Assembly: GCA_964464605.1 (NCBI GenBank)
Contig: CAYXJN010000002.1
Span: 124,001 to 188,000, forward strand
Origin: an uncultured Ignavibacteriales bacterium
GTDB taxonomy: Bacteria; Zixibacteria; MSB-5A5; GN15; FEB-12
Length of the DNA: 64,000 bases
Reading direction: 5' to 3'
The notes beneath the pieces were generated by a model. The model did not search any database, had not been told where the DNA came from, and was given only the letters and a program-made list of their open reading frames with translations. This document shows positions 37,820 through 42,884 of this stretch, in pieces. Both the position numbers and the translations under genes were made by a program. How positions within the stretch are numbered: the stretch's first letter is position 1; every line of letters starts with the position of its first letter.

Positions 37820-38524
37820 ATGAAAATGAAGGCTGCGGTTTTTGCTCTTTTGACGTGCTTAACTATCGGTTCGCTTTTGGCGGAACCGGCGCTTGAAATC
37901 AAGGGAAACCGCTATGATTTCGGTATTGTCCCCCAAAACGCAAAAATCTGCCAGTATTTCTGGTTCAAATCAATCGGTACGGATACGCTTCGTATCTCGG
38001 AAGTAAAAACCGGGTGCGATTGTGTAACGATGCCTGTCGAAAAAATGTGGATTGCACCGAACGACAGCATGTTAGTCGGACTAAGCTGGGAAACGGAACG
38101 GCGCATCGGCGGCATTGGGCGCTATCCCTATGTGATGACCAACGCCCGTACCGAACCATATCGTATTTCCTTAACGGCTGATGTTACCGTCAAACCGGAC
38201 TCGGCATTTCCGATCTGCTCCCGGCCTTTCATTCTTTCTTTGGCAAAGACAGCGACCGCATCAATCGATAGCATGAGCTTTCGCTTGGTGAACCGAAGCG
38301 ACCAGGATATCACCTTACGGGTGATGTCGTATCCGCCGATTCAGGTTGATATCAATATCCCCACGCATATCAAGGCAAATTCAGAAATAGTTTCGTATGT
38401 GAAGGTAAAACCGGATTTTGTGAATCAGGAGTTTTCCACATCGATAACCCTGATGACTGACGACGCCAATGAAACGCGCCTGACGATTCCGATAGCCAGA
38501 AAAAATTACACGACGACAAAATGA
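37820..38524 (+). CDS. Secreted DUF1573 protein, paralog 1 (CDC motif)
   Basis: Signal peptide; YDFG..F.FKSIGTDTL.I..VKTGCDC. Confidence 0.85.
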   Translation: MKMKAAVFALLTCLTIGSLLAEPALEIKGNRYDFGIVPQNAKICQYFWFKSIGTDTLRISEVKTGCDCVTMPVEKMWIAPNDSMLVGLSWETERRIGGIGRYPYVMTNARTEPYRISLTADVTVKPDSAFPICSRPFILSLAKTATASIDSMSFRLVNRSDQDITLRVMSYPPIQVDINIPTHIKANSEIVSYVKVKPDFVNQEFSTSITLMTDDANETRLTIPIARKNYTTTK

Positions 38525-39282
38525 AAAAGGTTTTGACCAGAGCATTGTTCATCGGCTGGTTTGCCGTATTCGCACAATCAGTATTCGCCGCACCGCGGCT
38601 CACGATGTATGAAGATGCTTTCAATTTCGGATATATTCCCCGTCAGGTAGCTGTCAGCCATGATTTTTGGCTTTTTTCCACCGGTGATGAGCCGCTTCTG
38701 GTTTTGCAGGTAGTACCCGGTTGCAGCTGCACCCAGATGCCGCTTGAAAAGCGACAGATACCGGTCGGCGACAGTTCACGGCTGGAAATCATTTTTCACT
38801 CCCGCACCTTTACCCGTGGAATCACAAAACGACCGACAATTCAGACCAATGCCGGACCGGACGCAAAAGTATTGCAGGTGATTTCTTACGTAGTCACTGA
38901 TCCGGATTCTACCTACCCGATCAAGATTGCACCGTGGCTTATCGAACTGAAAGGTTCACCGGAAGCTGCCAATATGGAAGCTTCTTTCACCCTCACCAAT
39001 TTGACCGGCACTCCGCTTTCTACCGACATAATCGCGCTGCCAGGCGCCTTTGTGGATGTCGAATTGCCGGCGACTATTCCGGCCAACGGCTCGGTCAGGG
39101 GAAGCATTCGCGCCAAAGAAAACCAGGCGAAAAAAACATTTGAAAAATCGATTACTTTTGAGTTAAATGATGAAGCAAAAAGCCGATTTACTATACCAGT
39201 GAAGCGTACCTACCGAAGCGGAACAACAAGTTCCGGTACTGAAGATACGCAGAACCATGTAGCCGGAACCGGCAGCAAGTAA
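38521..39282 (+). CDS. Secreted DUF1573 protein, paralog 2 (CSC motif)
   Basis: FNFGYIP..HDFWL.STGDEPL..VVPGCSCT. Confidence 0.88.
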   Translation: MKKVLTRALFIGWFAVFAQSVFAAPRLTMYEDAFNFGYIPRQVAVSHDFWLFSTGDEPLLVLQVVPGCSCTQMPLEKRQIPVGDSSRLEIIFHSRTFTRGITKRPTIQTNAGPDAKVLQVISYVVTDPDSTYPIKIAPWLIELKGSPEAANMEASFTLTNLTGTPLSTDIIALPGAFVDVELPATIPANGSVRGSIRAKENQAKKTFEKSITFELNDEAKSRFTIPVKRTYRSGTTSSGTEDTQNHVAGTGSK

Positions 39283-39301
39283 ACACTGTTATACGATGTA
39301 T

Positions 39302-40048
39302 ATGAAAAAACAATTCCGTTTAGCCTTGGTCTTTACCGTGTTTGCCGTTCTATCCGTAGAGGCAGCTCCACGGTTGACCATGGATAATTCCACATTCGAT
39401 TTTGGGTACGTGCCGCAGAATTCGGCTATCAGCCATGATTTCTGGCTGAAATCAGCCGGTACCGACACGCTCAAGATACTGAAAGTAGTGCCTGGCTGAG
39501 GATGCACCAAGGCGCCTCTTGAAAAAGAGGTCATTGCTGTCGGTGACAGCACCCGGTTAGAAATTATCTTCCATACCAAAACGTACTCAGGTCCGACGAG
39601 TAAGCGCCCTTCTATTCAAACCAACGAAGGACCGCCGGATAAAAGCGTCCAGATCATGGCCCATGTAGTATCCCGTCCGGATTCTACCTATCCCGTTATT
39701 CTGAATCCCTACAAACTGGATATGTCCCAGTTCACCGAGAAAGTGCGGGAGAAAGTGACATTTAAAATCAATAACGTTTCTGAAAAGAAAATAAAACCGA
39801 CCCTTGTTTCGGGCGCGAGTGATTATTTCACTATCAAACTGCCCGCTTCCATAAATCCCGGTGGTTCTGCCGAAGGAACCTTAACGCTTAAACCGGCAGG
39901 GTTAAAAGGCGGGTTTGAAAAATCATTCACAATTCAACTGGATGATGACAAAAAGAGCCGGTTCACTATCCCGGTCAAACGGACCGTTAACAATGTCGGC
40001 GCTGACAGCAATAGCGTCAAGGCAACTACCTCATCTTCCGGTCATTAA
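39302..40048 (+). CDS. Secreted DUF1573 protein, paralog 3, with in-frame TGA at 39497 (probable selenocysteine, UGC motif)
   Basis: VVPG*GCTKAPLEK aligns with VVPGCSCTQMPLEK of paralog 2; the frame stays open to 40048 and joins two ORF-track fragments. Confidence 0.85.
39514..39531 (+). promoter_or_regulatory. Candidate bacterial SECIS hairpin
   Basis: GCCTCTT-GAAA-AAGAGGT; G-first loop begins 22 nt after the TGA. Confidence 0.65.
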
Positions 40049-40072
40049 ATCGTACTGAGTAGCTACCAATAA

Positions 40073-40104
40073 AAAACGGGTTACGTGTACACGTAACCCG
40101 TTTT
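40073..40104. terminator. Bidirectional terminator, perfect 32-bp palindrome
   Basis: AAAACGGGTTACGTGT/ACACGTAACCCGTTTT between convergent genes. Confidence 0.8.
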
Positions 40105-40126: not shown

Positions 40127-41557
40127 TTAGTCTTGATCCTGGCGTTTGATCATGTCTGTCAGCGCTTCCTGCCAGACCTCGCTGTATACTTCCCCTTGAA
40201 CGTTGGAGTGCACTAACCGGAAATCATTGTAGCCAGTACGGTCTTCGAAGATAAAGAACTTACCTTCCTTAACTTGACGGTAATTCCAAACCTGGTACGG
40301 ATTCCCCGTACGCGGCGTCGGGAAATCATCAAGTTCATCCGGCGCGCCATAGGTCATATAAATTCGGCCCCGATCAGTCAGATAGCCGTCTGTTTTTGCT
40401 TCCCCGGTAGAAAACAATTGATTCACTTTCCGGTACCGCGCAACTAATTCTGTTTTGGTTGTATGATTGGCGGTAAGGCTTCCGGCAGCGACATCTTTCC
40501 AGTATTGATCCAGAAAGTTTCCCTGCCCTCGCTGGTCAAGGCGGTTTAACGTCTGCTTTTGGTCGGGAGTCAATATGTACATGACAATCTTCACCCGTTC
40601 CGGCAATGGTAAACTGTCATAGGCTGTTGCGATCACCTGTGTTGTGGCACCGGGTTGATCAACACGTGGGGCAATAATATGAAATGAGGCAAACACCGTG
40701 TCACGTCTGTTATTCGCTTTATCAAGCACACTGACTTCAAGAAAATAAGAACCGATCGGCCAGCCGCGAATGTCAAATTGGTCGGAGATCACAGCCGACG
40801 TACCAACTGTTGCACGGGTACGTTCCCCCAACGAAAGAAATTCGGTGCCAGCATCGTTGAGTATCCGATAGGAAACGACATGTGAACTCGGTTTGGCGGC
40901 ATCATACGAAAGATTATAAATTTCACCGTACACTGCGCCAATGCTGTCAACAGAACTAAACACAGCGCGTGGATTAGGGCGAATTCTCAATCCGTTTTTC
41001 GTCAAGCGACCGGGAATCTCCCCTTCCTCTTCTCCGATATACTCGATTCCTTCGGCAATAAGCAGACCACCCAGGGTAAGCGTATCCTTGTTCGGGGCGG
41101 GTACCATTACCCGCGGGGAAAATGCTTCCCCCTCACGCTTGCTAACCACATCGATAATGGTCAGGCGTATAGAATACAGACCCGGCTTTACCAGAATGCC
41201 TATTTTATTGAACACTGCCACCGGTACATTGGCATTGCTGTCGGCTTCAAAGGCGAAATAAGTCGTTCCGGAATCAACAGGACGTCCGAGCGAATCGATA
41301 ATGTCCAACTGCACGAAAACCCGGGTTGTTTGGTATGTTGATGCGCTATCCGGGTAGGATTGAAATTCGTGTTTTAAGACAGAGAAATATGATTCCAGCA
41401 AGGTCAGTGAATCATATTCCGGATTCGGAAATGCAACCACTCCCGCCTGCACGGTAAGGCGTCCTCCATTTTGCGCATGCGCAAATGAGATAAATGAAGC
41501 AAAAGCTACAGCAAAAAGAAAGGTGAAGCGGGACAGCTTAGAAATCAGGACGTTCAT
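40127..41557 (-). CDS. GWxTD-domain protein (GYLTD variant)
   Basis: GYLTDRGRIYMTYGAPD..PYQVWNY; signal-peptide-like N-terminus; start uncertain. Confidence 0.85.
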   Translation of the reverse strand: MNVLISKLSRFTFLFAVAFASFISFAHAQNGGRLTVQAGVVAFPNPEYDSLTLLESYFSVLKHEFQSYPDSASTYQTTRVFVQLDIIDSLGRPVDSGTTYFAFEADSNANVPVAVFNKIGILVKPGLYSIRLTIIDVVSKREGEAFSPRVMVPAPNKDTLTLGGLLIAEGIEYIGEEEGEIPGRLTKNGLRIRPNPRAVFSSVDSIGAVYGEIYNLSYDAAKPSSHVVSYRILNDAGTEFLSLGERTRATVGTSAVISDQFDIRGWPIGSYFLEVSVLDKANNRRDTVFASFHIIAPRVDQPGATTQVIATAYDSLPLPERVKIVMYILTPDQKQTLNRLDQRGQGNFLDQYWKDVAAGSLTANHTTKTELVARYRKVNQLFSTGEAKTDGYLTDRGRIYMTYGAPDELDDFPTPRTGNPYQVWNYRQVKEGKFFIFEDRTGYNDFRLVHSNVQGEVYSEVWQEALTDMIKRQDQD

Positions 41558-42884
41558 TAAGACCATCATACGGGTAGGCAAGGCGGTAATCTCCATCTCC
41601 TATTTCATCGGTAAACGTAAAGCGCCGGTAATTCCCTTTTTTGTAGTAATGCCATACCTGATAGGGATAGGTGTTGACGCTATACGGGTAATCATCAATT
41701 TTGTCCGGCTCTCCGAAACGAATGAACACTTTCCCCCGGTCAGTGCGCCATCCGGCCTGCTGTAAAAAGGCGAAACGGTCATTGGCGATTTCGATACGCA
41801 GATAAAACTCATCCCGCATCTCATTGTCCGGTGTTCCCGGGGTCGGGTCGCGTTCCTGCCAGAACCGCTCGAAGGCCTGTTTACGGGCTTCGTACGTTTC
41901 CGCTTTTTTCATCTCTTTAATGACGTCCGACTCGGTGATATAGCTTAATTGCTGCAGCGCAGTTTCGTAATCATGCTTTAAGAGCGCTTCACGCGTCCAT
42001 TGGATGTAAAAGGTCCGGATGCGGGCGTCGATTGCTTTGTATCGCTTACCGCGCAGGGTAACGGCAAGCTCATATTCACCGGGCGTGAACCCGTCGAGGG
42101 AAACCTGACGGAACTGTTTCATAGTCGGATTGGTGAAGGTTAAGTGCAGCGTATCCCGATAGACCATCTTACTCCGGTTGCGGACAATGCTTTCGACAAC
42201 AATCGTCGAATCCTTGTTTTCATCTCCGCGATACACTTCAAGGTAGTACGAAAGCCGTCCGGAATCATCGACGGAAAAGGTATGAGCGATCGACGGGATA
42301 ATCGTCATGCTCCCTTTCACGAACGTATTGGTGGTGTCCTCTGTCGCCGCTCCGGTCATTTGTACCAATTCAAGCCCCGACAAACTCGGCTTATCTTTGG
42401 TCGGTTTTTCAAGCTTCACTTTCAGTTCACGCGTTAGTACCTGCTGGCTGTTTTTGTCTCGGAGGGTAACCTCTACTTCATACTTACCGGGTGGAAGATC
42501 AAAAGCGACTTGCAGTACCCGGAAATCGGTTGCCGAGTGGGTGCGATGTTCGTTCGGAACGCGAATAGACCGGTCGATAGTTTTCGACCCGAATACCTGA
42601 TCGTCATTCCCCCGAACTACTGTCGTAATCTCGCAGGATGCCTCGTAAACGCCGTTCACGAGGTTAAAGGTTAAAAGACTCTGAAAGAGCTGATAATAGA
42701 TCTCAAGCCGAATCATACCCGCGCTGTCGGATTTAAAATCGGCATAGTCAACCAGCAATCCGGCCTTGTTTGCCGGAGCCAAAGAGCGGTGCTGAGGCGG
42801 TTCCTGCGCATTCCCTGCCGCGGCAATACAAAGCGTAACAAGGGACAGACATACTATGCGTTTGAACGGATGAAAACTCTTCAT
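41538..42884 (-). CDS. GWxTD-domain protein
   Basis: FWQERDPTPGT..NE, GWRTDRGKVFIRFGEPD. Confidence 0.9.
   Translation of the reverse strand: MKSFHPFKRIVCLSLVTLCIAAAGNAQEPPQHRSLAPANKAGLLVDYADFKSDSAGMIRLEIYYQLFQSLLTFNLVNGVYEASCEITTVVRGNDDQVFGSKTIDRSIRVPNEHRTHSATDFRVLQVAFDLPPGKYEVEVTLRDKNSQQVLTRELKVKLEKPTKDKPSLSGLELVQMTGAATEDTTNTFVKGSMTIIPSIAHTFSVDDSGRLSYYLEVYRGDENKDSTIVVESIVRNRSKMVYRDTLHLTFTNPTMKQFRQVSLDGFTPGEYELAVTLRGKRYKAIDARIRTFYIQWTREALLKHDYETALQQLSYITESDVIKEMKKAETYEARKQAFERFWQERDPTPGTPDNEMRDEFYLRIEIANDRFAFLQQAGWRTDRGKVFIRFGEPDKIDDYPYSVNTYPYQVWHYYKKGNYRRFTFTDEIGDGDYRLAYPYDGLNERPDF

Follow-up and report, generated by a model that had tools for sequence, protein, structure and literature searches.

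A DUF1573 gene with an in-frame UGA codon and two conserved downstream hairpins: a probable exported selenoprotein of the Zixibacteria

A tandem array of DUF1573 genes and its neighbourhood

The analyzed window is a 64,000-nucleotide stretch of a Zixibacteria genome whose assembly consists of 18 contigs (2.8 Mb). It contains a tandem array of three genes whose products all matched the DUF1573 profile (PF07610), and the third gene carries a TGA codon within its reading frame (Table 1). ORF calling with translation table 11 yielded two pieces of this gene, one of 67 aa (39296-39499) and one of 130 aa (39656-40048). When the frame 39302-40048 (+) was read through its only in-frame TGA, a single product of 248 aa was obtained, which ends at a TAA stop codon (40046-40048); a further ATG is located at 39296. 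The read-through protein had the best PF07610 score of the array (88.6 bits against a cut-off of 26.1, E = 2.9e-25), and, because the match covered residues 25-122, equivalent to positions 1-98 of the 98 in the profile, the domain extends across the TGA.

Table 1. Features of the DUF1573 array and the adjoining region (window coordinates).
Feature	Position	Strand	Basis
Cys paralog 1 (KTGCDC, 234 aa), opening the tandem array	37820-38524	+	29% identity to the Sec protein, full length
Cys paralog 2 (VPGCSC, 253 aa)	38521-39282	+	44% identity to the Sec protein, full length
Predicted selenoprotein gene, 248-aa DUF1573 protein	39302-40048	+	Read-through ORF, PF07610 match across the TGA
Probable Sec-type signal peptide, residues 1-21, cleavage after VEA	39302-39364	+	Inspection by eye and predicted helix
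Putative selenocysteine codon UGA (U66), opening the U-G-C motif	39497-39499	+	Homolog column and paralog alignment
TGC codon (Cys68), partner of U66 in UxC	39503-39505	+	Near-invariant C68 in the 72-protein alignment
Candidate SECIS hairpin 1, GCCTCTT-GAAA-AAGAGGT, 7-bp stem	39514-39531	+	Fold, covariation
Candidate SECIS hairpin 2, GCUGUC-GGU-GACAGC, 6-bp stem, encoding A-V-G-D-S	39536-39550	+	Invariance in Sec forms
Terminator-like palindrome, 14 bp, separating the Sec gene from the convergent GWxTD gene	40073-40104		Consensus scan of the sequence only
GWxTD-domain gene (PF20094/TIGR04514)	40127-41596	-	Converges on the DUF1573 array
GWxTD-domain gene (PF20094/TIGR04514)	41538-42884	-	Converges on the DUF1573 array

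The KTGCDC and VPGCSC motifs of paralogs 1 and 2 share alignment columns with the VPG-U-G-C of the read-through product, in which U66 has the context VVPG-U-G-C-TKAPLEK. The alignment therefore agrees with the initial annotation, which had placed the TGA in the column of the first cysteine of the paralogs' CxC motif. The same annotation had recognized one gene hidden as two ORFs and had described a frame that stays open and similar to paralog 2; the end-to-end DUF1573 match of the 248-aa product and its full-length identity to paralog 2 bear out both points. In addition, the stop codon of paralog 1 and the start codon of paralog 2 share 4 nt (ATGA, 38521-38524), and the genes of the tandem array may therefore be translationally coupled.

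The signal peptide was read by eye as MKKQFRLALVFTVFAVLSVEA, followed by AP after the predicted cleavage site, and contains no lipobox cysteine; the product is probably exported and would reside outside the cytoplasm. The AlphaFold2 model, based on the 72-sequence alignment, reached a pLDDT of 93.3 and a pTM of 0.84 and comprised an N-terminal helix (residues 2-16) and two beta-sandwich domains (residues 25-123 and 132-227). In the first domain of this model, U66-G-C68 is predicted to occupy the loop that follows strand 57-63. The profile PF22544 (HYDIN/VesB/CFA65-like Ig) was matched as well. The Foldseek search returned generic ASH/HYDIN-type Ig domains and 2qsv, a Porphyromonas gingivalis protein with no function assigned (E values from 2.4e-12 to 8.1e-10, TM about 0.35), and no functional match, while the sequence search of the PDB gave 0 matches at E up to 1. 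Thus, the predicted two-domain beta-sandwich resembles 2qsv and the ASH/HYDIN Ig domains, whereas these structures lack selenocysteine and have no sequence-level match to the protein studied here. Overall, the single gene at 39302-40048 would encode an exported two-domain Ig-like DUF1573 protein.

A gene for a GlcD-like FAD oxidase lies upstream of the array, and downstream of it are the two convergent GWxTD-domain genes and a MacB/FtsX permease gene. Among the relatives' loci with flanks, a GWxTD homolog adjoins the DUF1573 gene in 26 of 30. DUF1573 and GWxTD genes thus form a conserved neighbourhood of two families that both lack a known function.

Decoding of the in-frame UGA codon

Genes of the selenocysteine (Sec) system were found in the genome. 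The tRNA-Sec gene scored 66.4 bits (gathering score, 47) and was reported by ARAGORN as tRNA-SeC with the anticodon TCA; selA, selB, and selD scored 526, 320, and 395 bits, respectively, each above its curated cut-off. The protein search covered the genome itself and 40 relatives belonging to a single order and to four of its families. At least 39 of these 41 genomes yielded a match that contains an in-frame TGA, none being listed for G001 and G006; among the 150 best phylum matches listed, counted by row, about 116 carried one TGA. An alignment was then made of 80 homologs cut from 45 loci of the relatives. Its U66 column contained TGA in 45 sequences, Cys in 32, and another residue in 3, and 0 in-frame TGA codons occurred outside that column.

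The part of the gene located 3' of the TGA is under purifying selection. Its dN/dS ratio was 0.04-0.23 in pairs with unsaturated dS, and the mean amino acid identity to the window protein was 0.60 before the TGA and 0.53 after it. Contigs from four public runs, belonging to four studies of bioreactor, activated sludge, aquaculture, and sludge metagenomes, had 0 differences from the window over 39250-40100, although the DNA may itself stem from one of them. The public RNA runs that were found contained only 0.06 of the sampled words.

The TGA codon also serves as an ordinary stop in this organism. It ends 383 of the 1292 open frames of at least 300 codons genome-wide and 5 of 27 in the window, and all 34 other same-frame TGA junctions that were inspected lay between separate genes or in non-coding junk. 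These counts uphold the view of the initial annotation that the code has not changed genome-wide. Its other expectations for a selenoprotein were likewise borne out: tRNA-Sec, selA, selB, and selD are all present, the orthologs do not uniformly carry TGY, since 45 of the 80 homologs have TGA, in the U66 column only, and selection is not relaxed 3' of the codon. The proposed 248-aa selenoprotein is accordingly well supported, as far as sequence evidence goes, by the machinery, the TGA column, and the downstream selection.

Two readings other than selenocysteine were weighed against these data. Decoding of the UGA by a non-Sec route, namely a code change to Trp or Gly, near-cognate read-through, or Cys carried on tRNA-Sec, could be suspected from the four database homologs that were deposited with PGWGC at the motif. 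However, TGA ends long frames and divides genes at the 34 inspected junctions, the aligned residue of the paralogs is Cys and neither Trp nor Gly, the Sec system of the genome is complete, and Sec-specific hairpins follow the codon, all of which make such a route very improbable. The view that the two pieces from table-11 calling are remnants next to intact Cys paralogs, left by a nonsense mutation, a pseudogene lesion, or an assembly error, has a negligible probability, given that the TGA column recurs in 45 homologs of many genera and in 197 of 285 phylum genomes, that selection 3' of the TGA is purifying, and that the contigs of four studies carry the identical sequence.

For practical purposes, nonsense mutation, sequencing error, and code change are therefore ruled out by the conservation of the TGA, the selection downstream of it, the identical contigs, and the ordinary use of TGA as a stop. 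Sequence comparison thus strongly supports the TGA at 39497-39499 as a genuine selenocysteine codon, and the UGA would be read as Sec by the genome's own SelA, SelB, SelD, and tRNA-Sec.

Two adjacent hairpins downstream of the UGA

The initial annotation had proposed one hairpin 3' of the UGA as the SECIS element. Its GAAA loop (39521-39524) lies 21 nt 3' of the UGA, and the 86-nt stretch around it folds with -30.6 kcal/mol (z = -2.85), a value equalled by 0 of 200 shuffles. For a comparison among relatives, the 66 nt from the TGA onward were aligned for 44 distinct Sec forms. Hairpin 1 folds in all 44 of them, the distance from the UGA to its loop being 17-21 nt; a G is present within the first two loop positions in 35 and is lacking there in 9. 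The sequence of the hairpin is variable among the orthologs, with 79% of cells paired and compensatory changes in 3 of the 8 pairs. The two-helix covariation score was 0.171, compared with 0.103 for shuffled alignments (reached by 0 of 500) and 0.058-0.091 for slid controls, and the mean MFE of hairpin 1 was -9.8 kcal/mol in Sec forms versus -3.9 kcal/mol in the 12 closest Cys paralogs; the compared Sec and Cys sequences are related, and the shuffle and rank tests overstate their independence. The hairpin proposed earlier is thus real, covarying, and specific to Sec forms, but it makes up only half of the conserved RNA element.

The other half, hairpin 2, has a GGU triloop at 39542-39544, 42 nt 3' of the UGA. 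It is identical in 43 of the 44 Sec forms, including synonymous sites and excepting a Y at two wobble sites, while four-fold codons near it vary freely in the same sequences. The exception, L069, lacks hairpin 2 and keeps hairpin 1 with a GGA loop. Hairpin 2 was not found in any of the 31 Cys forms examined, and close Cys paralogs that contain AVGDS use other codons for it, the hairpin being missing. In the Sec forms, 99.2% of cells of hairpin 2 are paired, and it is the one downstream helix that the RNAalifold consensus keeps. The region folds with -6.6 kcal/mol in Sec forms, compared with -2.1 kcal/mol in the same 12 Cys paralogs. Two metagenome runs contained contigs from other organisms that matched only positions 39490-39552 (with 2 and 4 differences) and diverged on both sides; the confinement of the match to this segment indicates that the element is more strongly conserved at the nucleotide level than the remainder of the gene. 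The Rfam search of 39300-39800 at permissive thresholds returned no SECIS family and three chance-level matches below their gathering scores.

We compared both hairpins with the bacterial SECIS (bSECIS) model as it is outlined in section 5 and the legend of Fig. 2 of PMC13188914, namely a loop of 3-9 nt with an early G, a stem of 4-16 bp, and a UGA-loop distance of 16-37 nt. The element resembles the model in being an in-frame stem-loop directly 3' of the UGA. Hairpin 1 of the window is within all of the limits (7 bp, GAAA, 21 nt, -9.3 kcal/mol), and hairpin 2 follows the stem and loop rules, with 6 bp and a 3-nt loop opening G-G-U, and folds with about -6.8 kcal/mol when taken alone. Unlike the outlined model, the element consists of two conserved adjacent hairpins, and the invariant one is located at 42 nt instead of 16-37 nt. 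The accessible parts of the literature on DUF1573/OS_HP2 selenoproteins contain no description of a two-hairpin SECIS; an earlier description may exist.

In our proposal, an in-frame SECIS of two adjacent hairpins just 3' of the UGA would direct its decoding, with hairpin 2 as the putative stem-loop contacted by SelB and hairpin 1 as a candidate structured spacer. We tentatively suggest that this represents a bipartite SECIS class of the phylum, in which the GGU-triloop hairpin might bind SelB while the covarying hairpin 1 folds away the spacer. It is also conceivable, if somewhat doubtful, that hairpin 1 alone is the SECIS and that hairpin 2 is kept for ribosome pausing, mRNA stability, or a codon constraint on AVGDS. 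Hairpin 1 has the bSECIS spacing in 44 of 44 Sec forms (17-21 nt) and an early loop G in 35 of 44, hairpin 2 lies beyond the bSECIS window, and L069 has retained hairpin 1, with its GGA loop, and not hairpin 2. However, the loop of hairpin 2 is the G-G/U preferred in the model, and its invariance at synonymous sites, seen in Sec forms only, is what would be expected of an element recognized by a protein.

Should the bipartite arrangement be correct, SECIS searches with the canonical window would assign the SelB-binding element of this class wrongly, and they would miss the element where hairpin 1 has no loop G. Hairpin 2 would also constrain the protein: A-V-G-D-S is encoded in Sec forms versus mostly A-P-G-D-S in the Cys forms of relatives. 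Moreover, the two-hairpin element, being specific to Sec forms, offers a natural data set on what a SelB other than that of E. coli recognizes.

Family assignment, possible function, and distribution in the phylum

The initial annotation had left it undecided whether the family was already catalogued as a selenoprotein. The prokaryotic selenoprotein tables of PMC9312934 (2022) and PMC13188914 (2026) both contain the entry "DUF1573 domain-containing protein, PF07610, motif UGC" and credit it to Zhang and Gladyshev, 2007 (PMC1976440), where OS_HP2, from the deltaproteobacterial symbionts of the worm Olavius, is found in Table 2. According to these tables, the family has been listed since 2007, which lowers the novelty of the finding and leaves its correctness unaffected. 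All three array proteins matched the NCBIfam model NF041425 ("OS_HP2 family (seleno)protein") below its cut-off of 100 bits, the Sec form with 70 bits (E = 1.6e-19). By sequence score, the window protein is therefore related to this subfamily model and is not a member of it. The U66-G-C68 motif aligns with CDC and CSC of the paralogs and with CGC of database homologs; Sec stands at the first position of the conserved CxC, a motif that the review tables list as UGC. The likeness to the DUF1573/OS_HP2 selenoproteins, as tabulated, includes PF07610, the Sec position, the UGC motif, the existence of Cys homologs, and the logic of Sec/Cys pairs. In contrast to the tabulated originals, which came from deltaproteobacterial symbionts, the present clade is spread through the Zixibacteria phylum. 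The gene thus belongs to the already catalogued DUF1573/OS_HP2 selenoprotein family, and DUF1573 selenoproteins themselves are not new; new are an unannotated member of the family and a clade that falls below the cut-off of the curated subfamily model.

The annotation of the locus is hereby corrected to one 248-aa selenoprotein in place of two small hypothetical ORFs. The named homologs in protein databases are Cys forms, titled Zixibacteria/Zixiibacteriota or "bacterium," and these public Cys forms bear the names "DUF1573 domain-containing protein" or "hypothetical protein." PGWGC stands at the motif in 4 of the 120 homologs listed. In these four entries, the gene caller put Trp for the Sec TGA, and the selenoprotein is hidden under a wrong residue as well. 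Since the named homologs are Cys forms and four entries give Trp for the TGA, the split-ORF error probably recurs across the phylum.

Taken as a whole, the locus very probably encodes an exported DUF1573 selenoprotein that is served by the genome's own Sec system, with a proposed two-hairpin SECIS and a putative redox or metal site. As a general rule, selenocysteine replaces a catalytic redox cysteine, and on this basis U66-G-C68 may form a reversible selenylsulfide and act as a thiol/disulfide-type redox site outside the cytoplasm. Redox-active CxC motifs are represented by the CGC of Erv2 and the CPC of Mia40. By analogy, the U-G-C motif likewise has two chalcogen residues one apart, which could form a strained reactive ring, whereas the folds and compartments of Erv2 and Mia40 are unrelated, so that the comparison is one of analogy only.

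Alternatively, the motif could be a site for soft metals or metalloids (Hg, Cu, Cd, As) and not a catalytic redox center, CxC being a metal-binding motif in other proteins. The review table, in the part available, sets DUF1573 beside MerT, a cation-transporting ATPase, a YHS-domain protein, and a putative mercuric reductase, and these metal-handling families are credited there, as DUF1573 is, to the 2007 study of Olavius symbionts. However, no metal-resistance genes adjoin the array, whose neighbours encode the GlcD-like FAD oxidase, the GWxTD proteins, and the MacB/FtsX permease, and a metal site is a possibility to which we give well under even chances. The available text of PMC10434189 and PMC10682907, which mention DUF1573 outside the context of selenoproteins, provided no functional lead. 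By virtue of the Sec/Cys pair, the likely active residue of DUF1573 can be placed at the first cysteine of its CxC motif, and this residue is a concrete starting point for a widespread domain without a known function.

Other selenoproteins of the genome were sought with a crude coding-TGA scan, which gave 336 candidates, or 35 after a best-frame filter. In the 34 non-target candidates, Pfam detected no domain that spans the TGA, and they represent adjacent same-frame genes or junk. The scan is insensitive, missing short ORFs, Sec near either end of a protein, and weak coding scores, and its outcome therefore does not make the target the only selenoprotein of the genome. The peroxiredoxin (PF00578) and FdhA (TIGR01591) homologs of this genome contain no in-frame TGA.

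Across the phylum, the signature TGA-N3-TGY-N30-GCTGTCGGYGACAG, which joins the codon to hairpin 2, was found in 197 of 285 genomes, representing 93 of 130 genera and 13 of 20 families, and the reversed control pattern was found in 0 of the 285. The selA gene was present in 262 of the 285 genomes. In three families (f16, 10/10; f17, 14/14; f18, 5/5), selA occurred in all 29 genomes and the DUF1573 signature of TGA plus hairpin 2 in none. Either the Sec system of these families serves other selenoproteins, or their DUF1573 Sec form has a different SECIS. The idea that the Sec machinery is kept for the DUF1573 gene alone was disfavoured, because selA is also present in families without the signature; the Sec system of the phylum is thus not obviously retained for this gene alone. 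One selA match (G147:C64:9741-11075) contains an in-frame TGA, which may reflect an artefact of the frame, an error, or another cause. Two to three copies of the signature were observed in G201, G196, G198-G200, G267, G039, G035, and other genomes, and in most genomes of family f10; these multiple copies indicate that the Sec form itself has been duplicated in places.
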